From Syntrophales bacterium (GTDB lineage Bacteria > Desulfobacterota > Syntrophia > Syntrophales > UBA2210): a DNA stretch of 64,000 bases. The stretch is taken from positions 128,001 through 192,000 of the forward strand of contig CAXXNF010000001.1 of NCBI GenBank assembly GCA_963666365.2, read 5' to 3'. Below are positions 14,646 through 63,999 of this stretch, one piece after another. The stretch's first letter is position 1; each line of letters starts with the position of its first letter. The notes under the pieces are model-generated. The model did not search any database and was not told the DNA's origin. It saw nothing but the letters and a program-made list of their open reading frames with translations. Position numbers and translations under genes: made by a program.

Positions 14646-15254
14646 TTATTTAATAGATTCCTTTGATAGATCCCGCTCTCTCCACGCTTCAACGGCAGCT
14701 GTCAGTTCCTTGCTTACGTTGCTTATCTCACCGGCGGAGAGTTTACGTCCGATGAGCCGCTCGGACATCATCGAGAGGGTGCGCGTACTTACGCCGGCCA
14801 GGAACATAACGCTGAGGTCCTCCCTCAGAACATCTTCATATTGTTTGCTTCGTGGAATGACCTGGGTACTGAAAAGGCCATTTCGATCCCGCGGTACCTT
14901 AAGATCGACTTTGCCGATGCCTTTCAGTGTAAATTTGCGATGATAGGAACCATTGCGATGATTTGTATCCTCCTGACAGCGAACATAACGGTCTCTTCCC
15001 AGAAAATGGCTCAGTTCCTTATCCATAAGTATGGAAAGATATTGTCCTGTTTCTTGTATGTTCTCTCGAATCATGGCAAAAAGGTTCTGTTGTTCCTCAC
15101 AGATTCCGTTGATAATATCCGTCACTTCTGCTACTGTAATTTCCATCTTCATGGCGCTTCTCCTTTATCTATGGTTTCTTGGACAAAACCCTTATATTGG
15201 AAAAGCGCCTTTTTTACGACCTTTTATAATTTACACAAGATATTTTACACTACC
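14646..15254 (-). mobile_element. Truncated IS256-family element (left end plus N-terminal transposase 14646..15152)
   Basis: RNGSY, VPRDRNG, GVSTR motifs; DDE region missing; IS256-like end GGTAGTGTAAAATATCTTGTGTAAA starting at 15254. Confidence 0.85.
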
Positions 15255-19284: not shown

Positions 19285-19784
19285 TGACCCCTGATGTCAA
19301 TAGTGGACACCAATAAAAAATATTTAAGCTGCGTTCCTCCCTGCATAGAATTGCTGTTCATACCCAACAGGGGATACGTAGCCAAGCCTCTTCTGAAGTC
19401 GTTGTCGATTATAAAATATCTCAATATATTCCGTGATCTCTCTAATTGCATGTTCTCTTGTGGCATAACGACGATGATAGATAAGCTCGCTCTTCATGGT
19501 TCCCCAAAAACTTTCGATAGGCGCATTATCATAACAACAGCCCTTCCGGCTCATGGAAGCTTTCATATGAAAACTATCAAGGAGTTTCTGGTATTCAAAT
19601 GAACAGTACTGACTTCCACGGTCAGAATGATTGATGAGCCCGCGCTCAGGCCGTTTTCTTCTTACCGCCATCAATAAAGATGTAATGACAAGTTCTTGCG
19701 TCATCCTCGAGTCCAGTGCGTAGCCTACAATCTCACCGCTAAAAAGGTCTTTGTGGGCAGCACAGTAAAGCCATCCCTCATCTG
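19285..19784 (-). mobile_element. IS3-family 3' remnant (integrase core of OrfB plus right end)
   Basis: EGWLY..DLFSGEIVGY, HSDRGSQY, CYDNAPIESFW, YNRQR motifs; 5' part absent; TG-starting end near 19285. Confidence 0.85.
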
Positions 19785-19809: not shown

Positions 19810-21522
19810 GGCCTGTTGCCCAAATGATTTTTTTAAAAATACAGACACTCCCGTATCCCTATAGAAGAGTCCGGGAGAAATTTTTGCACGTCCGTTAAGC
19901 AGGGCTCGGCAAAACATGGCCGATACCGAAAAGGTTCTTAAATATATTAACAATAACAACTATTTGTAAATATTTTGCATCGCCCCAATGCATTTCTCCT
20001 GTCCGAACATTGCTCTTTGACATCTTTCCCGTGGACTGCCGCATCAGGATGGCAATATTCTGGACGGCGGCAATAAGAAAGTCTTGAATCTCCATGCGCC
20101 AGAAATTTCGCCATCTCGCTCGCTTATACCCATATCTCGTTGACCAGGCAAACGACCTCTCGGATAAATCCTGACGGCGCTTCACATCCTTCCGCGCTTT
20201 TTTGCTTCCCGCTTCTCTCAGCGCTGCTTCGAGATCATCATGCCGTGCGTGTCGTTTAAGCGATCGTCCGTCCTTTGCCCGCGTACACTGTTTTCTCAGC
20301 GGACAGGCCGAGCAGATTGCCGATGAAGCTTTATATTCATAGTAGGTTCGTTTCTTGTTGTAATTCCGTCTTTGCAGCATGCGACCAGCAGGGCAGAGGA
20401 AGGCGTCCTTCACAGGGTCGTAGATGAACTCTTCCTTCGGGAAAATGCCTTTTTGTCTTCCCGACCCGCGGCCGGTCTTTTCAAGGGAAGGCATGTGCGC
20501 CTTTATCTTTCTGTCGCGGCAGAGAAGGAAATTGTCGATCGTCCCGTATTTGCTGTCGGCCACCGCCGTTTCCACCGTATGCTCCGTATTGCGCTCGTGA
20601 GCGTCAATCATATCTTCCAGAGCATGGCCGTCATCCACTGATCCGGCGGTCACTTTTGTGGCAGTGATGATCTCGTGCTTTTCATCGACGGCACGATGCG
20701 TTTTGTAGCGTACCTTTGATTTACTCCCCCGGTGACGGGTAACGGAAGCGTCGGGATCGGTCGTGGAGATATACCGTTTGTCTACGGGGGTCGTCTTCGA
20801 CGCCTCTATGTCATCCAATCGCTTTTCAAGACGCCGATAACTTTTATTTAAATGTTTCGTGAGTTTGTGTGTATCCACTACTGAATTATTAGATGCGTCC
20901 GCATCGATAAGACTCGCATCCACAAAAAGCTTGCCGCCCTCAATCAGTCCTGCTTCGACGCACTGCCACACAATCCGCTCAAAAAAGAGCTTAAAGGCCG
21001 CAGTCCCCCATCGATTGCGGGCTTTGCTCAAGACGCTGTGATTGGGAACTTCCTCGTCAACGTCGTACCCGAGAAACCATAACCAATCCAGGCGCAAAGG
21101 AATCGTCTTCATGAGTTCCCGCTCCGATCGAACATTATAGAAAATCAGCAGGAGCATCATTTTAAGGATTATCGGCGGGGGAACGGAAACATTGCCCCGC
21201 TCTCCATAGGTGTCCTTCACAGCATCGGATACGAAATCGAAATCAATGCGATCCCGCATCTTCCGCAGCACATGATCCTGTGGAATCCTGTCTTCAAAAT
21301 TGATGTGATAGTGAAAGAGCTTTGACTGAAAATCAGGTTGGCGACCCATCATGGCAAGACCCTCACTGTTGGAGAATATAACGGACCTTATATACCATAA
21401 TATGGCAATTAATACAATGTGTTAAATGCGTTTGTCGATCATCTGACGCAACAAAAATACAACGGAATACTTACTTAATCCTATTCGCGTCTATTCGGCA
21501 TAGGGGATTTGGGCAACAGGCC
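19810..21522 (-). mobile_element. IS1182-family element
   Basis: IRs GGCCTGTTGCCCAAAT (19810-19825) / ATTTGGGCAACAGGCC (21507-21522) around an intact transposase. Confidence 0.88.
19895..21352 (-). CDS. IS1182-family transposase
   Basis: SERELM, PNHSVLSKAR, VDASLIDADAS, STTDPDA, ADSKYG, CPAG and CSACPLRKQCT motifs. Confidence 0.92.
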   Translation of the reverse strand: MMGRQPDFQSKLFHYHINFEDRIPQDHVLRKMRDRIDFDFVSDAVKDTYGERGNVSVPPPIILKMMLLLIFYNVRSERELMKTIPLRLDWLWFLGYDVDEEVPNHSVLSKARNRWGTAAFKLFFERIVWQCVEAGLIEGGKLFVDASLIDADASNNSVVDTHKLTKHLNKSYRRLEKRLDDIEASKTTPVDKRYISTTDPDASVTRHRGSKSKVRYKTHRAVDEKHEIITATKVTAGSVDDGHALEDMIDAHERNTEHTVETAVADSKYGTIDNFLLCRDRKIKAHMPSLEKTGRGSGRQKGIFPKEEFIYDPVKDAFLCPAGRMLQRRNYNKKRTYYEYKASSAICSACPLRKQCTRAKDGRSLKRHARHDDLEAALREAGSKKARKDVKRRQDLSERSFAWSTRYGYKRARWRNFWRMEIQDFLIAAVQNIAILMRQSTGKMSKSNVRTGEMHWGDAKYLQIVVIVNIFKNLFGIGHVLPSPA

Positions 21523-46719: not shown

Positions 46720-47535
46720 ATGTCAAACATGAAAGAATTTCAGGAGGCCGGGCAGACGCTGTATGACAAGATTCACCTGTCCAGTATGCCAATTGCCATC
46801 AAGTACATCAAAGATGTATCGGAGATAGAGGGTGAAAAAATCATGCGCCCCTCGGCCATAGGCGAGGAATGGTCTTTGTGCCAGGGTTTTACCTATGCCC
46901 GCCGCTGGGGTTGGAATGTGGCCATGACCGCTCAGGATAACTTCTGTGTCCCCGGCTCCGCCGGTCTCGGCTGGACGGATATATCCGAAGAGGACCGGTT
47001 TGAGAGTCAGATAAGACAGGGATGGCATAAGGACGCCGATGCGGAACGGCGGGTTTTTGATTTCACCCTGAGATTGTTCGGAGATCAGGTTGAAAAAAGA
47101 AAGGAATATAAAGGGTTCATACTGTCACCCCTACCCAGGACTATCATCGTTCCCGATACGGTTTTGATTTACGGCAATGCGGAACAGATAACCCACATCG
47201 TTCAGGCCCTGGTCTACGAAGGCCGTAATTTCCCGCAATCAGGATACTGGGGCTTTGGGGAATCCTGCATGAAGGGCGGGCTGGCCCCCTTCCTGACCCA
47301 GGTACCCCAGATTGTCATGCCCGGTACGGGAGACCGGACCTTTTCCGGTGTTTTCGACTACGAGATCGCCATCGGCCTGCCGGGGGCGATGATATGTGAC
47401 GCCGTCTCCAACCTGTTTAAAACGGGCGGCCGTTTAAATATGGGGATGCCGGTCAAGACCCTTCTGGCAAGGGGCATCAAGGCCAAGCTGACGCCGGGTT
47501 TTGATTTTTTACGGAAGAAATATGGGAAGGATTGA
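46720..47535 (+). CDS. DUF169 (COG2043)-family protein, paralog 1
   Basis: LCQGFTYARR, DNFCVP, YGNAEQ, GESC, PGTGDR. Confidence 0.8.
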   Translation: MSNMKEFQEAGQTLYDKIHLSSMPIAIKYIKDVSEIEGEKIMRPSAIGEEWSLCQGFTYARRWGWNVAMTAQDNFCVPGSAGLGWTDISEEDRFESQIRQGWHKDADAERRVFDFTLRLFGDQVEKRKEYKGFILSPLPRTIIVPDTVLIYGNAEQITHIVQALVYEGRNFPQSGYWGFGESCMKGGLAPFLTQVPQIVMPGTGDRTFSGVFDYEIAIGLPGAMICDAVSNLFKTGGRLNMGMPVKTLLARGIKAKLTPGFDFLRKKYGKD

Positions 47536-47662
47536 ACACGTTAAACCGATGGCCAGCCGGAGTAGTTATTCCGTGCAAATCCGGACTGTTACACGGAAAA
47601 GCGGAAGGGGGAACGCACGGACGCCCCTCGCTCATACGATATGACATAAGAAGGAGGAAGAC

Positions 47663-48502
47663 ATGGAATTGGAACAATATCGTGAAGTGGGAAATGATTT
47701 GTATCACCGGCTGCATCTGCCTACATACCCGGTGGCGGTCAAGTTCATACAGAGTGAGGATGAGATACCCCCGGAGGCCATCCGGCCCTCAGCAGGCGGT
47801 CAGAAATGGGCGCTCTGCCAGGCCTTCACCTATGCCCGGCGCCATGGCATGCATTCAGCCATGACGGATAAAGACAACTTTTGCGTTCCTTCGTCCGTTT
47901 CAATGGGGTGGGTCGAGGTGCCGATGAAGGGACTGTTCGAGAGTCAGATCCGGCAGGGATGGCATAAGGATCGAGCCGCCGAGAAGCGGAAATTCGATTT
48001 CATCGCGAATACCCTGTACGGCGGCCCGGAAGGTCAGGAGCGCTTATATAAGATGAGTCAGTATATGGGATTCATCTGCTCCCCACTGAACACAACCATC
48101 GTGATACCGGACAGTGTGCTTATCTACGGCGACAACGGACACATCTCCCATCTGATCCAGGCCCTGGTCTACGACTACACCGAACCGGTCACCTCATCAT
48201 TCGAGGGTTTTGGTGAATCCTGCATGAAAGGCGCCCTTCTCCCCTTCATTACCGGAAAGCCGCAGGTCGTCACCCCCGGCATGGGAGACATGGCATTTTC
48301 CGGAACAACGGTCAATGAACTGGCTGTCGGGATCCCCGGCCCGGCTGTGGGTCAGGTGAATGAATATTTGTTCAAGACCGGCGGTCGTCAGAACATGGGA
48401 TTCCCGTTGAAAAGCATGCTGGCCATGGGAGTAACGGAGTCCATAACCCCCGGGTTCAAGTATCTGAGAGAGATTGTGGAGAAGCAGCAGGATAAATCTT
48501 GA
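47663..48502 (+). CDS. DUF169-family protein, paralog 2
   Basis: LCQAFTYARR, DNFCVP, GESC, PGMGD. Confidence 0.8.
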   Translation: MELEQYREVGNDLYHRLHLPTYPVAVKFIQSEDEIPPEAIRPSAGGQKWALCQAFTYARRHGMHSAMTDKDNFCVPSSVSMGWVEVPMKGLFESQIRQGWHKDRAAEKRKFDFIANTLYGGPEGQERLYKMSQYMGFICSPLNTTIVIPDSVLIYGDNGHISHLIQALVYDYTEPVTSSFEGFGESCMKGALLPFITGKPQVVTPGMGDMAFSGTTVNELAVGIPGPAVGQVNEYLFKTGGRQNMGFPLKSMLAMGVTESITPGFKYLREIVEKQQDKS

Positions 48503-48553
48503 AGACAAACGGGCAGCTGTTCCTGTTTTACGCTGGTGCCCAAGGAGACAACC

Positions 48554-49366
48554 ATGAAATCTATTGAGAGTTATCAGGAGGCAGGCCGGGAGATTTGGAA
48601 CGACCTGAGGCTCGCGACCCATCCGGTGACGATAACATATATCAAAGATGAATCTGAAATTCCTGACGACTTTATCCGGCCATCCAAAACAGGAGAGAGC
48701 TGGGCTCTGTGCCAGGCCATCACCTTTGCCCGAAGCAACCGGTTACAAAGCGCCATGACGAAGGAGGATAATTTCTGTGTCCCCAGTTCGTATGGGCAGG
48801 GTTGGTTAAAACTGCCTTATAAGGAATTTGTCGAAAGTCAGATATTAAATCAATGGCGCAAGGACTACGAATCCGAGATGCGCTGTCACTTGGCATCCGG
48901 TGCTGATTATGCCTCCACGGCAAACCTGAAGAAGGCAATGGAACATGTTGGTTTTCTGGTGGCGCCACTTACCAGCACCCCTTTCATACCCGACTCAATC
49001 ATCTTTTACGGTAATCCCGGACAGGTTTCACATATTGTTCAGGCCTTGAGTTATGAGGGAAAACATGTGATCACATCCATCTTCAACGGATTTGGTGAAT
49101 CCTGTTGCAAAGGGGCATTAAAACCGTTTTTAACCGGAACACCTGAAGTTATCCTCCCCGGGGTCGGCGACAAATATGTCTCCGGGACCCAGGATGATGA
49201 AATGGCCGTGAGCATACCCGGCACCCTCTTGTCCGATCTCAAAGAAAACCTGTTTAAGACCGGGGGCGAAGCACTGGAGCAGGGCTATCCTTATAAGAAA
49301 ATCCGAAAGCCCCTTGATCACACCTGGTTGCCCGGGTGGGACTATCTGAAAAAGAAATTCTTTTAG
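48554..49366 (+). CDS. DUF169-family protein, paralog 3
   Basis: LCQAITFAR, DNFCVP, YGNPGQ, GESC, PGVGD. Confidence 0.8.
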   Translation: MKSIESYQEAGREIWNDLRLATHPVTITYIKDESEIPDDFIRPSKTGESWALCQAITFARSNRLQSAMTKEDNFCVPSSYGQGWLKLPYKEFVESQILNQWRKDYESEMRCHLASGADYASTANLKKAMEHVGFLVAPLTSTPFIPDSIIFYGNPGQVSHIVQALSYEGKHVITSIFNGFGESCCKGALKPFLTGTPEVILPGVGDKYVSGTQDDEMAVSIPGTLLSDLKENLFKTGGEALEQGYPYKKIRKPLDHTWLPGWDYLKKKFF

Positions 49367-49446
49367 GGATGGATACAGGGAATGTCAATGGGCTCTGGAG
49401 ATCAGAGCCAGTCGAAAAGGATCATATGTTTGAGGGAGGGATTTTC

Positions 49447-49692
49447 ATGAGAAATTATATTATCGGGCTGTTAACCGGTATCGCTGCAGGGCTCATGTGT
49501 GGTGCCACTCCCCCGCCTGCCTGGTACCTGTCGCTGTTCTTTGTGGCGGGAAGTGGTCTGGTGGCCTTCGGGCTCGATGTCTTTTTCGGATCACGTGAGG
49601 AACATCAATCACGGGCCGCATGGATGGGGTTGACTCTGTTCGGCGTGCCCGGTTTTGTTTTTCTCTCGATTGTGTGGAGATTCGGGTTTTAG
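49447..49692 (+). CDS. rdhB: RdhB-like 3-TM reductive dehalogenase membrane anchor (81 aa)
   Basis: Three hydrophobic segments with a WY...G..L..F...GS.EE...AAWM.L...G.P pattern recalling RdhB anchors; adjacent to rdhA. Confidence 0.7.
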   Translation: MRNYIIGLLTGIAAGLMCGATPPPAWYLSLFFVAGSGLVAFGLDVFFGSREEHQSRAAWMGLTLFGVPGFVFLSIVWRFGF

Positions 49693-49841
49693 GTTTTTCT
49701 TGCCCCTTTTTCCGGGCTGGCGCAGCGTGAAGTTGCCAGCCCCGCGCACATGCCCGTATGCGGGTATTCAAAGTTTGCACTGTAAGGTGACCTGAAAACC
49801 GGGAATGTAGATTCAACAGATCACAAGCAGGAGATATTCAA

Positions 49842-51185
49842 ATGGAAAAAATGACAAGCGATGTGAATAACGGATTCAACGATCCGGCAACCATACCCCA
49901 CGGGTATGTCTATCGAAGTCAAAAGGGGCGCTATCCCTGGTGGGTTAATTCTGTGGATAAAATCACAACGCCGGTGGATGTTTCGACATGGGAGCGCAAG
50001 ACCACCGACATGATTCTGATGACGCAAGTGATGCAGGGCCCCTTGCGTGAGGAAGGTCTTACCAGGCTCGAAAAGGGGCGTGCCCGGATGCTTGAAAAAA
50101 TGCGGAGCAATGCACCGGGCTCAAGAATCCAGGATTTTGCATTGCATTACGCATCGGAAACCTATTTTGCAGCAGGGACCGATATGTTTACATTGAGTCT
50201 TATCATGAAGTTTCTGAAGATTAATGAGATTGTCGGTACGCTGATTCATCCGCCGGATGAGCTCGGCGTTCCCCGCTGGGAGGGATCGGAGAAGGAAGCT
50301 TCAGCGATGGTCGAGGCCGCGGGGATTCACCTGGGGGCATCACAGGTGGGCTTTACGGGTCTCAACCCCTGGTGTCTTGAAGCAAACGTTCACATCAGCA
50401 GTTCCGTTGAAAAGATCAAGACCACCGAAGATGGTCAGGTATTGGTGCCGGAGGATATGAAATACGTAATCGTCCTGGCCGCCCAGGTCCCTATGGAAGC
50501 CCAGTACAGGGCCCCAAGTCAGATCGGTGATGCCGCTGACAGAAGCGGGTATGAAAACCGCCAAATGGCGATGGAGAGAATGATCAATTTTATCCGCGGC
50601 CTGGGCTACAAGGCCAAACCGATACCGGGAATGATACCTCCGGTCATCCCCCTCGCACTTATGGCGGGCCTGGGGGAAATGGGTCGCATGAACCGCCTGA
50701 TTTCACCGCTATATGGGGGCGCTATCCGTCTGGAAGCGCTCGTGACGGACCTGCCTTTGGCTCTGGATAAACCCATAGATTTTGGGTTACAGGAGTTTTG
50801 CAGAGGATGTAAAAAGTGCGCCAGGGCCTGCCCGGCTAATGCTCTCAGCATGGATGATGACCCTTCCTGGGAACCAAAAGGCGTGTATTCCACTCCTGGC
50901 AAGAAGGTCTGGTATGATGACGGTGAGCGCTGTTCAAGCTACAGCGCCAGTACGCATATCTACTGCGGGGCCTGTCTGGGGGCCTGCCCATGGAATAAAG
51001 ACAACAAGACGGCTCTTCACTCGGTGTCCAGGGCAATGGGGGCAACAATGCCGTCTCTGTCCCCGTTTATGGTTTTCATGGATGATCTGTTCGGGTACGG
51101 TCTCGTCCCGGAACAGAGGATGAACGAATGGTGGGACCTGAAACTTCCGAACAAGGGATTCGACAGTAGCAGAACCCGGTCGTGA
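49842..51185 (+). CDS. rdhA: Corrinoid-dependent reductive dehalogenase-family protein lacking a TAT signal
   Basis: PWWV..VD, FIRGLGY, AGLGEMGR, VTDLPL..DKPIDFG, FCRGCKKCARACP, C-x10-CGACLGACPW. Confidence 0.9.
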   Translation: MEKMTSDVNNGFNDPATIPHGYVYRSQKGRYPWWVNSVDKITTPVDVSTWERKTTDMILMTQVMQGPLREEGLTRLEKGRARMLEKMRSNAPGSRIQDFALHYASETYFAAGTDMFTLSLIMKFLKINEIVGTLIHPPDELGVPRWEGSEKEASAMVEAAGIHLGASQVGFTGLNPWCLEANVHISSSVEKIKTTEDGQVLVPEDMKYVIVLAAQVPMEAQYRAPSQIGDAADRSGYENRQMAMERMINFIRGLGYKAKPIPGMIPPVIPLALMAGLGEMGRMNRLISPLYGGAIRLEALVTDLPLALDKPIDFGLQEFCRGCKKCARACPANALSMDDDPSWEPKGVYSTPGKKVWYDDGERCSSYSASTHIYCGACLGACPWNKDNKTALHSVSRAMGATMPSLSPFMVFMDDLFGYGLVPEQRMNEWWDLKLPNKGFDSSRTRS

Positions 51186-51354
51186 TTTCGCTCAGGCCAT
51201 CATCTTTAACTCTACAAAAATTTGATAGTGGCGTTGAACTAAGAATTGAACCAAAAGAGGATCAAAATAGGGAAACGTCAGTGCATTAGCCGTCTCAGGA
51301 AGAGGTGTTTATAAGAAATTACCGATAAAAAAATACGAAATAGGAGGGACTTTT

Positions 51355-52905
51355 ATGAACCTTTCGACGCTTCTCGATCAGAACTGTGAACAATTTGGAG
51401 AGTATGTAGCCACGATTTGGCTCCCCGAGCCGGATAAGGAAGTGCAAATCACCAACCTCGATGCATTCAGGGAAGTAAAACGCCTCGGAAACGCCCTGAG
51501 AAATCTCGACGTGAAACGGGGAGATAAAATCGCCGTTTTTCTTCCCAATTCTCCCGAAGTCATAGCTACGTACCGGGCCGCCTGGAGAATCGGCGCGGCC
51601 GTTGTTCCCATCCTCTTTCTTTTGAGTGAGCAGGAAGTGCGATATATTTTGGAGAACTCTGAATCCGTCGCCGTCGTCACTCATTCCGATTTGTATGATA
51701 CGGTCGCCGGGGCGGCACGGGGCCTTGATCACGTCAAAAACATTATTTTGATCGATAAAGAACGAGAAGGGGCGCGTTTCTACGGAGATCTCATCGCTGA
51801 AAGCAGTGAAACGCTCGAAGCCGTTGAAACCGCCGATGACGAGATAGCGGTAATTCTCTACACGGCCGGGACCACGGGCAGACCGAAAGGGGTGATGCTG
51901 TCCCACCTGAATCTCTACAGTAATGCACAGAGCAGCTTCGAGCACAGCTTTCCTCCGGAGAAACAGGAGGAGGCACGAGCGTTCACCGGCCTTTTTGTGC
52001 TGCCGCTCTGTCATTCTTACGGTCTGATGGTTTCCAATGTCGGTGCCCTGAGCGGTGCAACGAACATTATGGTTCCCCGCTTTGATCCCGAAATGATCTT
52101 CCGCGCTATTGAAAAATATAAGATCAAAATCATGGCGGCCGTTCCGGCAATGTTTTCCTATTTCCTGATTGCCCCGGAGGCCGAAAAGTATGATACCGGT
52201 TCTATGGAAATGTGGTCTTCCGCTTCGGCGCCTCTTTCAACCGACGTCATCGAAAATTTTGAAAACAAATTCAGCGGTATCATCTATGAAGGTTACGGTC
52301 TTTCGGAGGCCTCTCCGACCGTTGCATCCCACAAGCTTGGGATGCCGACGAAACCGGGATCGGTCGGCATTCCCATCCCGGGGGTAGAAGTCAAAATATT
52401 CGATGAAAACGATCGGGAACAGAAGGCACATGAAATGGGGGAATTGGTCGTGCGGGGCGATAATGTCATGAAGGGATATTATAAGATGCCCGACAAAACC
52501 GCCGATGCAATCAAAAACGGGTGGCTGCATACGGGTGACATCGCCTATATTGATGATGACGGATATATCTTCATAATGGAACGAAAGGATGACATGATCA
52601 TACGAGGCGGCGAGAATATCTATCCGCGGGAGCTTGAGGAGGTGATCTGGTCTCATCCGGAGGTAGCGGAAGTTGCCGTTGTCAGTATCCCCGATCCGGT
52701 GAGGGGAGAGGAAGTGGTCGCCGTGGTTGTGCCTCACCAGGGAGCAACATTGACGGAAGCGGATGTCAAGGAATTCTGCACCGGTAAAATAGCCAAATTT
52801 AAACTCCCCAAGATGGTTGTATTTATGGACGTCCTGCCGAGAAGCTCGATCGGAAAAATACTAAAAAGGGAATTGAAAGAGAAGATGCGAGAACTGGTGA
52901 AGTAG
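51355..52905 (+). CDS. Long-chain acyl-CoA synthetase (FadD-like)
   Basis: YTAGTTGRPKG, GYGLSE, WLHTGD, GGENIYP, GKILK. Confidence 0.93.
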   Translation: MNLSTLLDQNCEQFGEYVATIWLPEPDKEVQITNLDAFREVKRLGNALRNLDVKRGDKIAVFLPNSPEVIATYRAAWRIGAAVVPILFLLSEQEVRYILENSESVAVVTHSDLYDTVAGAARGLDHVKNIILIDKEREGARFYGDLIAESSETLEAVETADDEIAVILYTAGTTGRPKGVMLSHLNLYSNAQSSFEHSFPPEKQEEARAFTGLFVLPLCHSYGLMVSNVGALSGATNIMVPRFDPEMIFRAIEKYKIKIMAAVPAMFSYFLIAPEAEKYDTGSMEMWSSASAPLSTDVIENFENKFSGIIYEGYGLSEASPTVASHKLGMPTKPGSVGIPIPGVEVKIFDENDREQKAHEMGELVVRGDNVMKGYYKMPDKTADAIKNGWLHTGDIAYIDDDGYIFIMERKDDMIIRGGENIYPRELEEVIWSHPEVAEVAVVSIPDPVRGEEVVAVVVPHQGATLTEADVKEFCTGKIAKFKLPKMVVFMDVLPRSSIGKILKRELKEKMRELVK

Positions 52906-52929: not shown

Positions 52930-53694
52930 AAATTCCGGGGACACGATACTAAATTATTGACAATTTGTGCAAATATTTACAGTAGCTGTTTATGGCACGT
53001 ATCGCACGAATAGTAGTCCCCGGATATCCGCATCATATAACGCAGCGGGGGGAATCGCAGACAGGAAACTTTTTTTTGTGATGATGACTACCGGCAATAC
53101 ATCGACTTGATGGCACAGTGGTGCAATCGATGTGGCGTTGAAATCTGGGCCTATTGCTTGATGCCCAACCACACACACCTCGTAGCAGTCCCGCAGACAG
53201 AGGAAGGTATGCGCAAAGCCATCGGTGAAGCGCATCGCCGATACGCCCGGATGATTAATTTTCGTGAGGGTTGGCGAGGCTATCTGTGACAGGGACGGTT
53301 TCACTCATTCGTGATGGATGAGCGGTATTTGCTGACAGCAGTCAGACACATAGAGTTAAATCCCGTAAGGGCACGATTGATCACCGATCCGATAGCATGC
53401 CCCTGGAGCAGTGCGAGAGCCCATATTGAGAAACGAGATGATGCGTTTGTGAAGATATCGCCGCTGTTAGAGTTGATTCCTGACTGGAATAAATTTTTGG
53501 AGGACAAAGTTCAGGAGGAGGAATATAAGGAACTTCGTCAGCATGAACGAACAGGCAGACCGCTTGGCAGTGATTTGCTCATTGATACGCTTGAGGCGCT
53601 GTTAGAAAAACAACTGCAGAAGAAAAAAACCGGGCCAAAAGGTCCATGGAAACACAGGAACAGTAAATAATTTAGTATTGTGTCCCCGGAATTT
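52930..53694 (+). mobile_element. RAYT (Y1 HUH transposase) element bounded by 29-bp inverted repeats
   Basis: AAATTCCGGGGACACGATACTAAATTATT (52930-52958) and its inverse (53666-53694), 28/29 match. Confidence 0.88.
52992..53670 (+). pseudogene. Inactivated REP-associated tyrosine transposase
   Basis: MARIARIVVPGYPHHITQRG, then an extra G near 53050; CLMPNHTHL; GYL*QGRF (TGA 53287-53289); HIELNPVRA. Confidence 0.9.
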
Positions 53695-54845: not shown

Positions 54846-56171
54846 TTATTTACGGCCGTTTATAATAGGCGGTGTGCAGAACTGCATCGGCACAGGAAAA
54901 GCCTGCGTGTATCCTGCACTAGTGGGATACCATTTATTGGGATAGGTCAGTACGGAAACGTGGATGTTTCTGAGCAACAGATGATCCTGCGGTCTCATAT
55001 AAAGCGTTCCACTCGGAGATTCATAGGTATCTCCTTCCCACTCCTGGATAATTTTTTCTGCATCGGTGCTCCCAACACGCTGTACGATATCTAATAACCA
55101 ATACATGCTTATGGCGCACCGTCCCATAAAACCGGATGGCCATCTATAAAAATTGGTGTTATAGGGTTTCTCCCACTTTTTCCACTGGGCATGCCACAAT
55201 TCGTTGAATTTATTGTTCGAGGGAGTATTAACGCTGGGGATATGATCCCCTAACACCACCAGTCCCGCTCCTGCCGGGCCGCCGATTATCTCAAGCGGTC
55301 GCAAATCGTCAACATACAAACTGGCAATAGGAATCTTCATTCCAAGTTCCCTCGATTGTCTGACCATATTTTCGTTATCCACACCCCAGTCCTGGCTGAT
55401 GATCACTTCGGCGCCCAATCCCTGGATCTTGGTAAGGTAGGGGGCAAAATCTTTCGTAAAGAGCGGATGGAATTGCTCGCCCACAATAGTCGACTCGGGT
55501 CTGTATTTTGCCAACGCCAACTTAAAGGTTTCTGCGAAGGCATGGCCATAGGCATAGTCCTGGCACAAAAGAAAAAATTTCCTTTCCGGCCGGGCGGAAT
55601 AGAAATAGGCAAGCGCCGATGACCACTGAGTAGTATTGGGGGCGGTCTGGAAATAATAGGGATTCCAGTGCTTGTCATCAACGAGCAGATCTGAAAAGGA
55701 ACAGTAATTTACAAATATTTTTTTGTACTTGGCCGCAACTTGCTGGCACACAATGGTAAGATGAGTTCCTGAGGTGCCGACCAGGATGTCAACATTATCT
55801 TCCAGGGCAAGTCTTTCCGCCGCTTTTTTGGTGATTGCCGGTTTCACCTGTGTATCGCCCTTTAAAATCTGAATCTTTTTCTTTTTTCCATCGACCATAA
55901 TGCCGCCCTGCGAATTTACATCATGGGCAACCCAGGACAATGCAAGCCAGTAGAGTTCACCGGCAAAAGATGCGGATCCGCTGAAGGGCTCTAGCATTCC
56001 TATCTTAATGGTATCACCCGATGTCGGATAGGTCGGCTTCATAGTGTCAAAGCTGGCGATATCTCCTTTAAACGGTTCGAACGCATAGACCTGCGAAAGA
56101 CCTATACAAAGCATACATAGAACTACAAAACACACGCCGGTAATGTGAGCTTTCCTGCTACTGCAATTCAT
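54846..56171 (-). CDS. Orphan ABC substrate-binding protein (LivK/PBP1 family)
   Basis: Signal peptide, IKIGMLEPFSG, QDYAYGH, DFAPYLTKI; no cognate permease nearby. Confidence 0.88.
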   Translation of the reverse strand: MNCSSRKAHITGVCFVVLCMLCIGLSQVYAFEPFKGDIASFDTMKPTYPTSGDTIKIGMLEPFSGSASFAGELYWLALSWVAHDVNSQGGIMVDGKKKKIQILKGDTQVKPAITKKAAERLALEDNVDILVGTSGTHLTIVCQQVAAKYKKIFVNYCSFSDLLVDDKHWNPYYFQTAPNTTQWSSALAYFYSARPERKFFLLCQDYAYGHAFAETFKLALAKYRPESTIVGEQFHPLFTKDFAPYLTKIQGLGAEVIISQDWGVDNENMVRQSRELGMKIPIASLYVDDLRPLEIIGGPAGAGLVVLGDHIPSVNTPSNNKFNELWHAQWKKWEKPYNTNFYRWPSGFMGRCAISMYWLLDIVQRVGSTDAEKIIQEWEGDTYESPSGTLYMRPQDHLLLRNIHVSVLTYPNKWYPTSAGYTQAFPVPMQFCTPPIINGRK

Positions 56172-58618: not shown

Positions 58619-61600
58619 CTATCTCAGACCGGAAATTCCCTGCAGTATATATATCATCTCCTCAGCCCTGATCGTGGAATTACCTGATATGTTTATTATT
58701 TTCTTGATGCCGTCAGGGCTTTCGCCTGTGAGGATGCGGCCTGCCAGTATGGCGTCGGCCAGATCCACACTCCCGGATCCGTCTATGTCGCCGACAATGG
58801 GCTTTGATTCGGGATCATGAGGGTCCGTTCCGTAGAAATACTCCTCGAGATTGGTATAGCTATCCTCGTCCCAATCCATTGATCCGTCATCCAGTAACGG
58901 ATTGAGTGTAGTGTCTACCTCCCAGGCGTCGGACATGCCGTCGCCGTCAGTATCGCCGTTGGTAGGATCTGTCGCATATCGGTATTCATACCTGTCGGTC
59001 AGCCGGTCCTTATCCTGATCTCCCGTGCCTTCGGTGGTGGTGAGATCTTTGAAAAAGGCACGTTCCCAGCTGTCGGCAAGTCCATCACCGTCAGTGTCCT
59101 CGTGCAGGGCCCGCCTGAAGACACCCGAGCCCGCGCTGCCGAAATACAGATAATTTCCGTCGGCCGACATGACCATGGTGTTGGTGACATTGTTGCCGTT
59201 CGTCCCCGGTTTCAGGTTGGTCAGGCCCTCATTCCAGCTCGACCAGCCGGCGCCGCCGTCATGGCTTATAAAGACACCTTCACACTGAGAGGCCAGGTAC
59301 AGTGTGTTCGGGTCATGCCTGTCCACAATGATCTTATAGAATTCATTGTCAAGCTGCAGACCATTTGTGATAGGAAACCAGTTCGCGCCGCCATCCATAC
59401 TCTTCATAACCGTGCCGTGGAATTCTTCCCTGCCCCTCCCTTCGTTTTCACCGTTCTTTGAGCAGGCATACATTATGTCGGGATTTCCCTGGTCAAAATC
59501 GATTGAAAACACCCACTGCTCGTCAGGCCAGCCTTTATCCCACATCTCCCAGTGTTCGCCGGCATCCAGGGACCGATTGACGCCATTATATGTTCCCGCG
59601 TAAATTATTTTGGTGTTGCCGGGCCTGAAGACAAGAGAGAATACGCCATCGTTGGTCCATCCGACATTACGTTCTCTCCAGCTCTGCCCGCCGTCGGTAC
59701 TCTTGTAGATACCTGCGGGAAATGTCCCGACATATATATTTTCTGCATGGACAGGGTCAAAAAGCAGAGTGGTGTATTGATACAGGGGACGATCATCCCA
59801 TAGAGGCCAAAATGTTCCGTAATTTCCGAAGCCAGGCATCTGGCGCCACGTCTTTTCCGGGGGATCATAATAATAGAGTTCATATCCCAGAGTGCCGCAC
59901 ACCAGGGTACCGTCGGACAGCATATCCAGTGTTCTGACCTGCGTGTTATCAAGCCCCGTGCTGAAATCACTCCACGTAACCCCTTCATCGGTTGTTTTAT
60001 ACACGCCCTCTTCCGTTGCGGCGTACACGACGGGAGCGTCGTTGTGGGGATCGACAACCACTTCATAGATGTGTTTCCCATACATTTTCCTGTCCGCGCC
60101 GCTGGCGCCTATATCGAAATCCATTCCATCGTACGATTTGTATATCCCCTTGCCCCAGGTGCCCAGCCATACCTGGCTGCTCTTTTTCGGATTTATGGCA
60201 AAGTTGTAATAGCCCTGACGGTAGGGATCCTCCACCACCACGCTGGGAGTGAGAAAGTTTTTGTCATAGAATGTCGCTCCGCCGTCATCGGACCGGTACA
60301 ATCCCCCCGGATTTGCACCCACGAAGATCCGCTCGGGATTCGCGGGATCGATCTCGATCTGCAGGCTGTAGACCTGAGGCGACGGCTTGTTGCTTCGATC
60401 CGGCTGCCACGTGACGGACATCCCGCCTGTCGAAACCAGGTCGCCCGAATAGACACCGAATCCCTGAGTTCCCACGTATATGGTACTTCCCCCCACCGTG
60501 CATGAAGTGAGAACTTTGGTATCCAGGCCTTCGTTACAGGCTCTCCATGTCTTCCCGGCGTCCGTACTTACCTGCAGGCCATCGTCCATGGCAGAGGCAA
60601 AGAGTGTGGTGTGATCATCCGGGTGCAGTCTTATTGCCCGGCATTCGTTGTCGGTACGCAGAAGCTGTTCCCATGTGGCGCCGGAATCGGTTGACCGATA
60701 GACCCCCGAATCGTCGCTGAATGTATAGCCGTCCGGCGCCATGCACCAGTCCGGAACCGTTCCCCCGCCCATACCGCATGTATATACGATGTGCGGATCA
60801 ACCTGGTCCACTTCGATATCATAGGCGCCTATATCGGGAAAGTTCTGCATCTCTGTCCAGTCTGCGCCCCCGTTTACCGATTTGTACGCGCCGTAGATAT
60901 GCGTCGTTACGTAGACAATGTCGGGGTTGTCTGGATTGACGGCTATGTCCAGCACACTGCGCGGCAAACCTCCTGTGATATCAATCCATTCCTTACCCGC
61001 ATCGGTTGATTTGTAGAGTTTTCCGCCATGCATCCCCGGACCGAATGTGGCTGCGTAAATCCTATCGCCATCAGCCAGCACGCGGTTTACCAGAAACGCC
61101 CCGTTAGACGAGAAGTCTCCAATAACTTCCCATGTAGCGCCCCCATCGATGGATTTCCAGACTTTCGGTGCGGTGCGATCCGAAAGATATATCACATTGC
61201 TGTTAGAGGGGGTCAGACTCAGGGACGTGGCGGAGACAGGCGCATTCTTGAGCAGGGTCCAGTGTGCTCCCGCATTTGTTGTCTTCCATGTGCCGGCGAG
61301 CCAGGTGCCTGCATAGGCGATGGAAGGATCATTGGGATCCACTATGAGCTGGGGCTGCCCCCAGACCGTGTTCATAATGAAGTGTTCATTGAGATTGGAC
61401 CAGTTGTTTCCGCCGTCGGCACTCTTGAATATTTTTCCGCCTGTGCTCCCCGTGCTGCCGGCATAGAGGGTATTGTGATCTGAAGGATCGAACACAACGG
61501 ATGTGATTGCCTCAGCGCCATCCACATGGAGCGAAGTATCCCATGTATTCCCCCCGTCGGTTGTCCTTCGCACCATGGCCCAGTTCTGAAAGGGCTTGGA

Positions 61601-63148
61601 GTTATAGCCGCTGAACACGATATTCGGGTTTTCAGGGTGAACCACCATCGAATAGGAATAGTCGATCTCCGACTGGTGCAGAAAACGCCAGCTTATACCT
61701 CTGTTTTCAGTCTTGAATATCCCGAAACCGCTCTTGAGCGCGTATAGTATATCGGGATTCGACGGGGCGGGAGCCACGGCATGAATTGAACCGTATCTGA
61801 ATCCGGCACCATAGGTATCGATTATCTTTTTCCAGGTTGTGCCGCCGTTCTCCGTCATAAAAACTTCGCCCACATCCGCCACTTCCCATACGGTTTCAGG
61901 ATCATGGGGACTGATCACCAGTTCGTCGGTCCAGGGATGGGTTATCCCTCCCCCTACAACGTTGGTCCATGAATCACCATTATCTTCTGTCACAAAAGTT
62001 CCTTCGCCGTTTACTGTTGCCGCATATACGGTCCCGCTACCTGGAGTGTCTGGAAGCGCAAGAAGGGATATGCTTGTGTTGAGCAGCCCCTGATTGATGG
62101 GAGTCCATGAATCTCCTCTGTCTTCTGTCTTGACTATTCCATGGGCGCGCCGGGGTAGATACAGGACGTCAGTATTGCGGGGATCTACCGCTATATCACA
62201 CATATCCCCGCTTCTTCCGGGCGGAGTAATGTTTGACCAGCTGCTTCCATTATCAGTGGATCTGTATACTCTGTCTCCCGTACCCACATACAGCGCATCA
62301 TCTTCCCGGGCCCTGCCCATAATATTTACCATACCATCAGTACCGGGCAGTCTGAGTGATATCCATGTATTACCGCCATCCACACTTTTCAGGAGGTAAT
62401 TGTCTTTCTCACTGTCAAACACTTCGTTATACACGTCAAATAGCCCCACATAGATACTATTGGTATCCGACGGGTCAACAAAAATGGTATTAACATCCGA
62501 AGCTTCACCTTTATCCAGATCGATCTGATTCCAGGACTTTCCCCCATCGATAGTGTGATACAATCCTCCTTTACCTTGATTGACTGTCCCAACCCAGATT
62601 TCATCTACTGCTCCCATGGAGATTTCCCAGATTTTTTCATCCGGCAGACTGCCTGAAATATCATCCGACCATGTCTCTCCCGAATCTTTGCTGTAATACA
62701 CCTCACCGCTGTGGAGTCCCGCGGCCAGGACGGAGGAATCGGATACTGACATTGAAATGCATTCTATTCCCCCGAAAAAATCCAATTTCAGCCAGTTGAC
62801 GCCTCCGTCGTCACTCTTATATATCAGGCCACCTGCCAGCGCATATATTTGCTGGCTGTTCTCCCATGAGACAATGATGTCGATAGTGTACATGGTCGGA
62901 TCCCCAAACTCTTTTGTCATGAACCATGTTTCGCCCCCGTCAACCGTCTTGTATATTCCTCCGCCGGCGCCACCGGCATAGAGAATATCAGGATTCTGAG
63001 AATCGATTTCCACGACGTTTATCCACCCGCCGGCAGGACCATTGGTCTGAACCCATTGGGATGCCTGTACCGTATTGAAATCCGGGATTATAAGTGTGAG
63101 GAGAGCGAGCAGGGATATCGCTGCGGTTTTTCCAAAGGCGGACATCAT
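58619..63148 (-). CDS. Large secreted BNR/Asp-box (VPS10/sortilin-like) beta-propeller protein with DxDxDG Ca-binding repeats and a C-terminal dockerin-like domain
   Basis: Signal peptide; many S/T-x-D-G-G-x-x-W boxes; DTDGDG repeats; GDIDGSGSVDLADAI. Confidence 0.88.
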   Translation of the reverse strand: MMSAFGKTAAISLLALLTLIIPDFNTVQASQWVQTNGPAGGWINVVEIDSQNPDILYAGGAGGGIYKTVDGGETWFMTKEFGDPTMYTIDIIVSWENSQQIYALAGGLIYKSDDGGVNWLKLDFFGGIECISMSVSDSSVLAAGLHSGEVYYSKDSGETWSDDISGSLPDEKIWEISMGAVDEIWVGTVNQGKGGLYHTIDGGKSWNQIDLDKGEASDVNTIFVDPSDTNSIYVGLFDVYNEVFDSEKDNYLLKSVDGGNTWISLRLPGTDGMVNIMGRAREDDALYVGTGDRVYRSTDNGSSWSNITPPGRSGDMCDIAVDPRNTDVLYLPRRAHGIVKTEDRGDSWTPINQGLLNTSISLLALPDTPGSGTVYAATVNGEGTFVTEDNGDSWTNVVGGGITHPWTDELVISPHDPETVWEVADVGEVFMTENGGTTWKKIIDTYGAGFRYGSIHAVAPAPSNPDILYALKSGFGIFKTENRGISWRFLHQSEIDYSYSMVVHPENPNIVFSGYNSKPFQNWAMVRRTTDGGNTWDTSLHVDGAEAITSVVFDPSDHNTLYAGSTGSTGGKIFKSADGGNNWSNLNEHFIMNTVWGQPQLIVDPNDPSIAYAGTWLAGTWKTTNAGAHWTLLKNAPVSATSLSLTPSNSNVIYLSDRTAPKVWKSIDGGATWEVIGDFSSNGAFLVNRVLADGDRIYAATFGPGMHGGKLYKSTDAGKEWIDITGGLPRSVLDIAVNPDNPDIVYVTTHIYGAYKSVNGGADWTEMQNFPDIGAYDIEVDQVDPHIVYTCGMGGGTVPDWCMAPDGYTFSDDSGVYRSTDSGATWEQLLRTDNECRAIRLHPDDHTTLFASAMDDGLQVSTDAGKTWRACNEGLDTKVLTSCTVGGSTIYVGTQGFGVYSGDLVSTGGMSVTWQPDRSNKPSPQVYSLQIEIDPANPERIFVGANPGGLYRSDDGGATFYDKNFLTPSVVVEDPYRQGYYNFAINPKKSSQVWLGTWGKGIYKSYDGMDFDIGASGADRKMYGKHIYEVVVDPHNDAPVVYAATEEGVYKTTDEGVTWSDFSTGLDNTQVRTLDMLSDGTLVCGTLGYELYYYDPPEKTWRQMPGFGNYGTFWPLWDDRPLYQYTTLLFDPVHAENIYVGTFPAGIYKSTDGGQSWRERNVGWTNDGVFSLVFRPGNTKIIYAGTYNGVNRSLDAGEHWEMWDKGWPDEQWVFSIDFDQGNPDIMYACSKNGENEGRGREEFHGTVMKSMDGGANWFPITNGLQLDNEFYKIIVDRHDPNTLYLASQCEGVFISHDGGAGWSSWNEGLTNLKPGTNGNNVTNTMVMSADGNYLYFGSAGSGVFRRALHEDTDGDGLADSWERAFFKDLTTTEGTGDQDKDRLTDRYEYRYATDPTNGDTDGDGMSDAWEVDTTLNPLLDDGSMDWDEDSYTNLEEYFYGTDPHDPESKPIVGDIDGSGSVDLADAILAGRILTGESPDGIKKIINISGNSTIRAEEMIYILQGISGLR

Positions 63149-63384: not shown

Positions 63385-63999
63385 CTATTCCGTCGACAGG
63401 TTCCTCAGAATAGACAGTGCATCTCCCATATCGATCGCGCCGTTTCGCGTAATGTCGGCTTTTATTTTCCCGATAGTTTCCAGCGTGCCTTCATGTGCGA
63501 GAATATGAAGGATGCAGATAAAATCACCAAGATCAACGACGCCGTCGCCATTTATATCGCCGTAGTTGATGAGTCCCGTCAACGGATAATCGTGGAGCTG
63601 ATTGACTCCCGCGGCTGATTCACACAGGCTCATCACGTGCACGGCGCCGTCGGAACCGCATACCTGCAGGAGAGGCGCGCGAAAATCACCCTCTTTGTCG
63701 GTCACTCTTGACAACAGCAGGATCTCACCTTCTGAGACGTCTATTGTGCCGAAATAAAGGCCGATTCCAGTCCCGTCCCCCTGCGTCCATGTGACGGCCG
63801 ACAGGTCTCTGTCCCCATCCTCGATAACGGCAAGGGACAGCTCGCGAGGGACCGCTTCCGGAAACAGCAGTCCAAGATTCGACCATTCTTTGGTTTCTCC
63901 TTCATATTTACAAAGTCCGATTCCGGCGTTGTCCCCACTGTAGCCAAGATAGGCGCGGCGCTCATCTCCGCAAAGCGCGAAGGCGCTCCCTGCAGCTTC
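63385..63999 (-). CDS. C-terminal part of a dockerin-like domain protein (runs off the window)
   Basis: Frame open to the window edge; GDINGDGVVDLGD and ADITRNGAIDMGD duplicated Ca-loops. Confidence 0.8.
   Translation of the reverse strand, partial: EAAGSAFALCGDERRAYLGYSGDNAGIGLCKYEGETKEWSNLGLLFPEAVPRELSLAVIEDGDRDLSAVTWTQGDGTGIGLYFGTIDVSEGEILLLSRVTDKEGDFRAPLLQVCGSDGAVHVMSLCESAAGVNQLHDYPLTGLINYGDINGDGVVDLGDFICILHILAHEGTLETIGKIKADITRNGAIDMGDALSILRNLSTE

Follow-up and report, generated by a model that had tools for sequence, protein, structure and literature searches.

A Tat-less reductive dehalogenase beside an RdhB of reversed charge bias in a Syntrophales bacterium: a pair predicted to face the cytoplasm

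Reductive dehalogenase genes (rdhA) whose products lack a twin-arginine translocation (Tat) leader are abundant in marine sediments, and their enzymes are usually taken as soluble and non-respiratory. The subject here is one such gene, together with the adjacent gene for a putative membrane anchor (rdhB), in a stretch of 64,000 nucleotides (nt) from a Syntrophales bacterium (assembly GCA_963666365.2, contig CAXXNF010000001.1, forward-strand positions 128,001-192,000); this whole stretch is called the window, and positions are counted from its first letter. The pair bears on a question open since 2014: are Tat-less RdhAs that come with an rdhB gene targeted to the membrane? Both genes lie on the + strand, in the order rdhB-rdhA. 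The rdhB-like open reading frame (ORF; 49447-49692) codes for a membrane protein of 81 amino acids (aa), to which an AlphaFold2 (AF2) model assigns three helices, and rdhA (49842-51185) codes for a 447-aa corrinoid and iron-sulfur (Fe-S) reductive dehalogenase catalytic subunit with no Tat leader. The two ORFs and their order are as an initial annotation, made from the DNA letters, had placed them.

The small gene runs from an ATG at 49447 to a stop codon at 49690-49692, and a GGAGG ribosome-binding site can be read 7 nt 5' of the ATG (49435-49439, +). A longer form, started by a GTG at 49336, is also in the ORF listing; the start was set at 49447 because the 21 other clusters of the protein's family that align over the full length are all 81-82 aa long and begin with M/V-R-N. 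Between the genes lies a gap of 149 base pairs (bp; 49693-49841, +), which has no coding potential for a Tat leader and carries a TGA at 49788 in the rdhA frame. The GGAG-type ribosome-binding site annotated before the rdhA ATG is an AGGAG at 49829-49833 (+), with a spacing of 8 nt. No Rfam family reaches its gathering score in the gap, the only such matches in the window being two tRNAs elsewhere, and a cobalamin riboswitch or other RNA element near the genes was discarded as a candidate for want of Rfam support at that score. A scan of 49200-51500 for promoter and terminator consensus sequences gave matches no more than chance would, with none on the + strand in the gap. The sigma-54 consensus of deltaproteobacterial rdh operons (PMC6299228) is found upstream of neither rdhB nor rdhA; allowing up to two mismatches, it gave 24 matches against 29 expected.

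As judged from profiles and modeled fold, the larger protein is a respiratory-type reductive dehalogenase catalytic subunit, for which corrinoid binding and halogen removal are predicted. It scores 224.1 bits against TIGR02486, above the curated family threshold (160.35), and 62.6 bits against the Dehalogenase domain PF13486 (cut-off 24.3). Its best sequence matches in the Protein Data Bank (PDB) are PceA of S. multivorans (4uqu_A, E 2.6e-42) and PceA of the D. hafniense PceA2B2 complex (8q4h_A, E 2.5e-37), followed more weakly by NpRdhA (E 7.5e-31) and the epoxyqueuosine reductase QueG (E 6.9e-09). The AF2 model, made with 39 homologues, has a pLDDT of 89.9 and a pTM of 0.91, and Foldseek matches it to PceA over the full length (E 1.5e-24, query TM-score 0.68), to NpRdhA at 0.56-0.59 and to QueG at 0.28-0.34. 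Grouping with QueG, which the annotation had named as a finding that would overturn its reading, is contradicted by these scores and by the QueG model TIGR00276, where the protein gains 47.6 bits, far under the cut-off of 200; an identity as QueG was rejected. One descriptive term has to go: the enzyme had been called short, yet at 447 aa it comes close in length to mature respiratory RdhAs (464 aa in the PceA chain 4uqu_A).

The catalytic residues seen earlier hold up on alignment. Y237 (in SGYE; codon 50550-50552, +) and R296 (in AIRL; codon 50727-50729, +) fall, in an ungapped stretch of the alignment, on the catalytic pair Y246 and R305 of PceA from S. multivorans. The two [4Fe-4S] motifs (50799-50990, +) are formed by C320, C323, C326 and C330 and by C364, C375, C378 and C382, and the Pfam domains Fer4_16 and Fer4_7 are matched at residues 320-385. 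Conservation was read from 118 full-length homologues, that is, the 120 best matches minus two 279-aa fragments. All eight cysteines are invariant among them (118/118), residue 296 is Arg in 107, and residue 237 is Tyr in 84 and Phe in 28. The Arg position also follows the presence of an anchor gene: in the RdhAs of the genome loci collected (80 loci), it is Arg in all 15 with an adjacent RdhB but in only 5 of the 72 without, 67 of which have Lys.

Is the small ORF an RdhB? The local Pfam and NCBIfam libraries return nothing for it, even at E 10, a PDB sequence-profile search gives no match, a protein-atlas look-up gives only scores below 0.9 to unnamed clusters, and no name was found for PF27193, the precomputed database label on its family. 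Failure against RdhB profiles was a further outcome that the annotation had said would refute it. The ORF did fail in the local libraries, but it passed when profile was compared with profile: hhalign aligned its family to 12 RdhBs from beside Tat-bearing RdhAs, Dehalobacter RdhB included, with 97.2% probability and E 3.6e-11, the match covering helix 2, the loop and helix 3. All but one of the family's 22 clusters are 81-82 aa long, the mean column identity is 66%, and R2, N3, Y4, G7, G11, E52 and Q54 are invariant. Run over the 80 genome loci, its profile finds small ORFs directly 3' of Tat-bearing rdhA genes, including the Dehalobacter rdhB; run over 1.84 billion representatives, it finds 72 proteins at E <= 0.001, mostly of 80-108 aa and canonical-RdhB-looking. 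Three of the 72 exceed 140 aa, as weak and partial matches only, and no fused RdhB-RdhA form is among them. The AF2 model (pLDDT 86.4) has helices at residues 2-19, 26-51 and 55-80, and its top Foldseek match among 350,542 PDB chains is PceB (8q4h_C, E 0.036, query TM-score 0.62), the second-ranked match falling to E 2.9. Its length and helices also suit an RdhB anchor, a type of protein that has about 70-110 aa and two or three transmembrane helices. By these profile and fold comparisons the 81-aa protein is a true RdhB homologue, and the annotation's RdhB-like anchor stands.

The missing RRxFxK leader was verified from several sides. The first 40 residues of RdhA are hydrophilic (mean Kyte-Doolittle value -1.03), its most hydrophobic 19-residue stretch reaches 1.44 and lies in the protein core, so that no membrane-like segment is present, and the Tat-signal models of NCBIfam and Pfam (E <= 0.01) do not match it; as a control, TIGR01409 picked up four of the seven tested relatives with RRxF or RKxF and gave no hit on the Tat-less ones in the test. 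Nor does the intergenic gap conceal a leader, as the annotation had already noted: the in-frame TGA at 49788 stands 18 codons 5' of the rdhA ATG, and the three forward frames of 49690-49850 hold no RRxF. The string RMRVFK, which lies upstream of that stop in the rdhA frame at about the distance where relatives have RRxF, was put down to chance, its Arg pair being broken by Met, no hydrophobic stretch coming after it and the stop standing between it and the gene.

The same absence extends to the relatives. If a Tat leader is taken to be a twin-arginine motif with a hydrophobic stretch after it, 113 of the 118 full-length homologues have none, and the Tat-less proteins start about where the mature part of Tat-bearing relatives starts, just before a conserved RYPWWVKxVD. 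The stop 18 codons upstream and these leaderless homologues show that the RdhA is not a truncated copy. A quick maximum-likelihood tree of the 118 homologues and 15 locus RdhAs (LG+G4, with Shimodaira-Hasegawa-like approximate likelihood-ratio, SH-aLRT, values as its support and long branches flagged) places the window RdhA in nested Tat-less clades of 13, 23 and 65 rows (SH-aLRT 99, 99 and 97). These sit in a 119-row clade (support 100) of 114 Tat-less and 5 Tat-bearing rows, and the outgroups (Aminicenantes, Eubacteriales, Anaerolineae, Dehalobacter) are all Tat-bearing. Intact leaders in close homologues, the remaining result that would have told against the annotation, are thus not what was found; the apparent loss of the leader is ancestral to the RdhA's clade, clade-wide and old. 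Two basal "Tat-less" rows, P0093 and P0120, may be truncated gene calls. The five Tat-bearing rows (P0087, P0102, P0108, P0115 and P0119, two of them with RK for RR) form a subclade nested inside the Tat-less clade, a position that calls for either repeated, independent losses of the leader or a single regain.

How often does such an rdhA keep an anchor gene beside it? The 80 genome loci contain 15 RdhB-like ORFs, 14 of them directly 3' of a Tat-bearing rdhA; the gap is 2-31 nt in 13 of these pairs, and in the fourteenth (L003) the ORF was called too long and overlaps the rdhA. The sole close relative in the genome collection searched is L001, from a metagenome-assembled genome of Thermodesulfobacteriota, whose RdhA and RdhB are 49% and 38% identical to those of the window. 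There a window-type rdhB follows a Tat-less rdhA after 191 nt. The order is thus B-A in the window and A-B in L001, with adjacency kept despite the rearrangement. Two NCBI records, sought for the adjacency of rdhA and rdhB in relatives, turned out to lie on different contigs.

The evidence for orientation comes from the charges of the anchor. According to the positive-inside rule, the side of a membrane protein that is rich in Lys and Arg faces the cytoplasm. These residues were counted per membrane side after alignment to the profile of the 81-aa family, eight odd or truncated proteins being left uncounted. Window-type RdhBs (n = 26) were represented by 21 family clusters, the four best full-length representatives and L001, and in 26 of 26 the side of the N-terminal tail and the helix 2-3 loop has more Lys and Arg (median bias +2). 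The opposite side is richer in 53 of 58 other three-helix RdhB-like proteins (median -4) and in nine of nine two-helix RdhBs beside Tat-bearing RdhAs (median -7). The individual elements agree: an N-tail with Lys or Arg occurs in 25 of 26 window-type proteins versus 9 of 58 others, Arg2 being invariant in the 81-aa family, while a basic C-tail (at least two Lys or Arg) occurs in none of the 26 versus 50 of the 58, and the basic first loop has been lost. By the positive-inside rule, the reversed bias predicts a cytoplasmic helix 2-3 loop, and the absence of the basic C-tail and first loop, together with the invariant Arg2, predicts for this RdhB an orientation opposite to that of PceB. Both Tat-less RdhAs with readable context, those of the window and of L001, are paired with an RdhB of this reversed type.

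The loop itself has also changed. It spans residues 48-57 (GSREEHQSRA; 49588-49617, +) and is the counterpart of the ExE loop, whose canonical motif is absent: the first Glu is kept as E52, and the second position is an invariant Gln, giving E52-H53-Q54. ExQ is the motif in 24 of the 26 window-type RdhBs, and ExE in 52 of the 67 others. In the cryo-EM structure of PceA2B2, the helix 2-3 loop of PceB with its ExE glutamates lies on the outer membrane side and touches the C-terminus of PceA (PMC10624902). As a separate observation, five more distant RdhB-like proteins (P0155, P0161, P0173, P0184 and P0212) have no basic C-tail and a bias of +2, like the window type.

The surface by which the catalytic subunit would meet such a loop is also recognizable. 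Residues 384-432 of RdhA (50991-51137, +), with helices predicted by the AF2 model at 391-402, 404-416 and 424-432, correspond in the alignment to the region through which D. hafniense PceA binds PceB and menaquinone. In that complex the menaquinone is enclosed by helices 2 and 3 of PceB and two C-terminal helices of PceA, and the site is lined by W487, K489, H495, R499, D515 and Y520 of PceA (PMC10624902). The aligned residues in the window are W384, K386, H393, R397, D414 and Y419. Among the 118 homologues, W384 and K386 are present in 118 each, H393 in 117 and Y419 in 114, with a basic residue at 397 in 117 and Asp or Glu at 414 in 118. Among the locus RdhAs, a basic residue at 397 is present in all 15 that have an RdhB alongside and in 18 of the 72 that have none.

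What might this pair be? The interpretation judged to have slightly better than an even chance is that it forms a PceAB-like reductive dehalogenase assembled on the cytoplasmic face of the membrane, a location predicted from sequence. A membrane-tethered enzyme facing the cytoplasm is what the annotation had suggested, and the reversed charge bias of the anchor provides independent support for such a tether. RdhB would insert opposite to ordinary RdhBs, with its N-terminus and helix 2-3 loop inside and its C-terminus outside, so that the loop and the helix 2/3 surface that binds the C-terminal helices of RdhA would face the cytoplasm. The unexported RdhA would fold and receive its corrinoid and Fe-S clusters there. 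Electrons from menaquinol would most likely enter, as in PceA2B2, at a pocket formed by residues 384-419 of RdhA and helices 2 and 3 of RdhB, and from there would reach the corrinoid by way of the two [4Fe-4S] clusters. The quinol protons would be released inside the cell; it follows that the enzyme would not itself contribute to the proton gradient, which fits the change of the second loop Glu to Gln.

The genes around the pair form a long run on the + strand: an alpha/beta hydrolase, a 393-aa Fe-S protein, a nitroreductase, a second hydrolase and a DUF1330 protein, then a 370-aa paralogue of the Fe-S protein, a second DUF1330, three DUF169 proteins, rdhB, rdhA and an acyl-CoA synthetase, with a TetR gene on the opposite strand at the far end. 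The three tandem DUF169 paralogues (271-279 aa; 46720-49366, +; PF02596, E 1e-37 to 2e-40) lie directly 5' of rdhB, and no DUF169 is found near the RdhA genes of the 80 loci. The AMP-binding acyl-CoA synthetase (51355-52905, +; PF00501, E 2e-87) lies directly 3' of rdhA. Similar CoA ligases occur in the flanks of RdhA genes in four loci (L055, L065, L069 and L078), and no other neighbor recurs near RdhA in the 80. The accessory genes rdhC, rdhT and rdhK are common but not obligatory in respiratory RdhAB systems; 50 window ORFs of at least 80 aa were selected, and Pfam scans of 46 of these found nothing like them, that is, no FMN (flavin mononucleotide)-binding membrane protein, trigger-factor chaperone or CRP/FNR regulator. 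In L001, a flavodoxin gene lies directly 3' of rdhB, and a metallo-beta-lactamase-fold protein and a sulfatase are also encoded. Such surroundings suggest a role in catabolism or detoxification, and they provide other candidate electron donors in the cytoplasm. The CoA ligase, hydrolases and nitroreductase nearby suggest halogenated aromatic acids, dehalogenated inside the cell, as the substrate.

Other features of these two stretches of DNA deserve a record of their own. The segment 41091-46519 (+) is a local duplication, in which the two DUF1330 genes barely differ (mutual E 1e-80) and the 370- and 393-aa proteins (mutual E 4e-53) each join a Cys-rich N-terminal part, for which no family was matched, to a C-terminal 2x[4Fe-4S] ferredoxin domain. 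The sulfatase of L001 (4775-6310, +) is divided between two neighboring ORFs, which match profile positions 2-195 and 210-301, possibly because of a frameshift or an assembly error. Transposase genes or fragments lie in the window at 7388-8998, 14646-15152, 19324-19704, 19895-21352 and 53107-53670, the kinds being IS66, a Mutator-family piece, an integrase-core piece, a DDE transposase and an IS200-like Y1 piece; this Y1 piece (53107-53670) is about 200 nt 3' of the CoA ligase downstream of rdhA. In the opening part, a 966-aa hybrid histidine kinase (3368-6271, -) has an N-terminal MEDS domain (DcmR-type sensory, E 4e-44) with PAS and receiver domains, three other hybrid kinases rich in PAS domains are encoded at 308-2095, 9042-11450 and 16495-19188 (the third also having a CHASE domain), and a 977-aa protein (11462-14398, -) fuses a CheB methylesterase, a CheR methyltransferase and PAS. 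Near the other end, a 1508-aa protein with Sortilin/BNR repeats and a bacterial TSP3 repeat (58619-63148, -) adjoins a 108-aa ORF with a dockerin domain (63385-63714, -).

Several observations weigh against a quinol-linked pair on the inner membrane face. In absolute terms the charge bias is modest (+1 to +4), and it would also be compatible with a topology that is dual or only weakly fixed. The 26 window-type RdhBs are closely related and may stand for only one or two independent evolutionary events, and for only 2 of them is it known whether the partner RdhA has a Tat leader. The gaps of 149 nt in the window and 191 nt in L001, compared with 2-31 nt in 13 of the 14 Tat-linked pairs, imply a looser coupling of the two genes. 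Respiratory accessory genes are absent from the ORFs scanned, and the cytoplasmic Fe-S proteins encoded nearby, or the flavodoxin in L001, could serve as electron donors instead. The catalytic Tyr is Phe in the 28 clade members counted above. As for the pocket, RdhB-less locus RdhAs also have His at the position of H393 in 53 of 72 and Asp at that of D414 in 67 of 72, so that these two residues, frequent with and without RdhB, say little. Quinone-pocket residues are also conserved in quinone-independent organisms (PMC10624902). For both reasons, the pocket residues do not prove the use of quinol.

Some of these points lead to a different picture, in which RdhA would be a soluble, cytoplasmic, catabolic enzyme fed by ferredoxin- or flavodoxin-type donors, and the RdhB-like gene would be a leftover or serve a purpose other than anchoring. 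The lack of a Tat leader, the long gaps, the catabolic-looking neighbors (TetR, two alpha/beta hydrolases, nitroreductase, CoA ligase and the two ferredoxin-domain proteins of 370-393 aa) and the flavodoxin directly after rdhB in L001 all suit it, and small cytosolic RdhAs of about 395 aa are known in Desulfobacterota (PMC12219181). It is nevertheless considered unlikely, although it deserves to be kept in mind. The RdhB family is well conserved, in length (21 of 22 clusters at 81-82 aa), in mean column identity (66%) and in its invariant E52 and Q54; rdhB adjoins rdhA in two loci of differing order; RdhA retains the C-terminal interface residues and the Arg296 of RdhB-linked enzymes rather than Lys; and a coherent reversed charge pattern is not expected of a decaying anchor.

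The pair might also be membrane-bound without being a dehalogenase in vivo, and act as a corrinoid/Fe-S reductase on another class of substrate. No characterized member of the RdhA's clade came up, the catalytic Tyr is replaced by Phe in the relatives mentioned, and the three DUF169 and two DUF1330 neighbors are without assigned function. This appears improbable for the window enzyme, which itself retains Tyr237 and Arg296, exceeds the curated threshold for reductive dehalogenases and has a fold nearest to that of proven ones. Least probable of these readings is a complex that still faces outward, its RdhA exported without a signal of its own, for instance by riding with a Tat-bearing partner: Kawai et al. 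raised the possibility for Tat-less rdhA homologues (PMC3939436) and the RdhA is otherwise of the respiratory type, but the RdhB charge pattern opposes the ordinary orientation, the Tat loss is apparently clade-wide and old, and among the ORFs of 44-56 kb no twin-arginine N-terminus was seen by eye (no dedicated scan was made), the only signal-like one being of the Sec type, on a binding protein at 54846-56171.

A bolder proposal can be made about the pair's origin, one that is tentative and falls somewhat short of an even chance. The pair would be a respiratory-type quinol:organohalide oxidoreductase turned inside out: after its RdhA lost the Tat leader, RdhB would have flipped by gaining Arg2, losing its basic first loop and C-tail, and exchanging Glu for Gln in the proton-release loop, and the PceAB architecture would now sit on the cytoplasmic face, oriented like fumarate reductase. 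This would be a natural case of a redox enzyme and its anchor inverting together, and a clean example of evolution using the positive-inside rule to flip an anchor along with its partner enzyme. Many Tat-less rdhA genes of marine Desulfobacterota could then remain wired to the quinone pool and not be merely "catabolic". Should this large clade (at least 113 clusters at 90% identity) be anchored at the inner face by a re-oriented RdhB, a link to quinones stays possible for it, and the way in which surveys of organohalide respiration ought to score such genes changes. Arg2, the lack of a basic C-tail and ExQ would serve as simple anchor markers that predict the membrane side.

Among known systems, the closest is the menaquinol:organohalide oxidoreductase PceA2B2 of D. 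hafniense TCE1 (8q4h; PMC10624902), which both window subunits match by sequence or fold. The pair shares with it the catalytic Tyr and Arg, the motifs of two Fe-S clusters, the aligned quinone-pocket residues and a three-helix anchor; it differs in an RdhA without a Tat leader and an 81-aa anchor that reads ExQ, not ExE, and no pceC- or pceT-like genes were found near it in the Pfam scans. With the prototypical exported RdhAB it shares the adjacent rdhB (149 nt upstream, same strand) but neither the Tat leader nor the accessory genes. The catabolic enzymes NpRdhA (4ras/6zy1) and BhbA have the same catalytic core as the window RdhA, are likewise Tat-less and are cytoplasmic, as it is predicted to be; unlike it, enzymes of this type have about 700 aa, an extra N-terminal domain and/or a reductase domain, no RdhB and, at the position of R296, a Lys (K488 in NpRdhA, per the title of PDB entry 6zy0). 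The hybrid transmembrane RdhAs of Atashgahi 2019 (PMC6797604) are also Tat-less and carry an RdhB-like three-helix EXE anchor, the catalytic domain being predicted as cytoplasmic in many. In these the anchor is fused and no rdhB gene is present, whereas the window has a separate rdhB and an RdhA whose hydrophobic maximum is 1.44. A four-class scheme divides RdhAs into prototypical, transmembrane and cytosolic enzymes and a clade with helices and RdhB (PMC12219181), and Thomas et al. describe non-Tat signals in Anaeromyxobacter (PMC2330069).

Genes combined in this way have been counted before. In the marine Deltaproteobacteria of Liu and Haggblom 2018, Tat signals were reported for 16 of 35 RDase A proteins and an RDase B nearby for 26 of 35, from which at least 10 of the 35 must be Tat-less RDase A genes with an RDase B; two of their genes, like that of the window, have the B gene upstream, a likeness that goes by the reported counts (PMC6299228). 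In the sections of that paper drawn on here, the orientation of RDase B is not discussed, and the paradox of a B gene beside a Tat-less enzyme is left standing. The Smkt1 cluster of subseafloor rdhA homologues of Kawai et al. 2014 (PMC3939436) has a Tat signal in 0 of 12 and one adjacent putative rdhB, of 91 aa, listed as VcrB-like and defined by size and helices, not homology. Membership of this rdhB in the 81-aa family was considered and rejected, as the sequence listed does not belong there. Whether Tat-less enzymes reach the membrane is left open in the parts of their paper used here. A reversed RdhB orientation was not found discussed in the literature searched, which left out bioRxiv supplements and subscription journals. 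At the level of genes, the combination of a Tat-less rdhA with an rdhB is therefore already known from these reports (PMC6299228, PMC3939436); what the Syntrophales pair adds to them is the reversed distribution of Lys and Arg in its anchor, the ExQ motif of the loop, and the quinone-pocket residues retained in a Tat-less RdhA.

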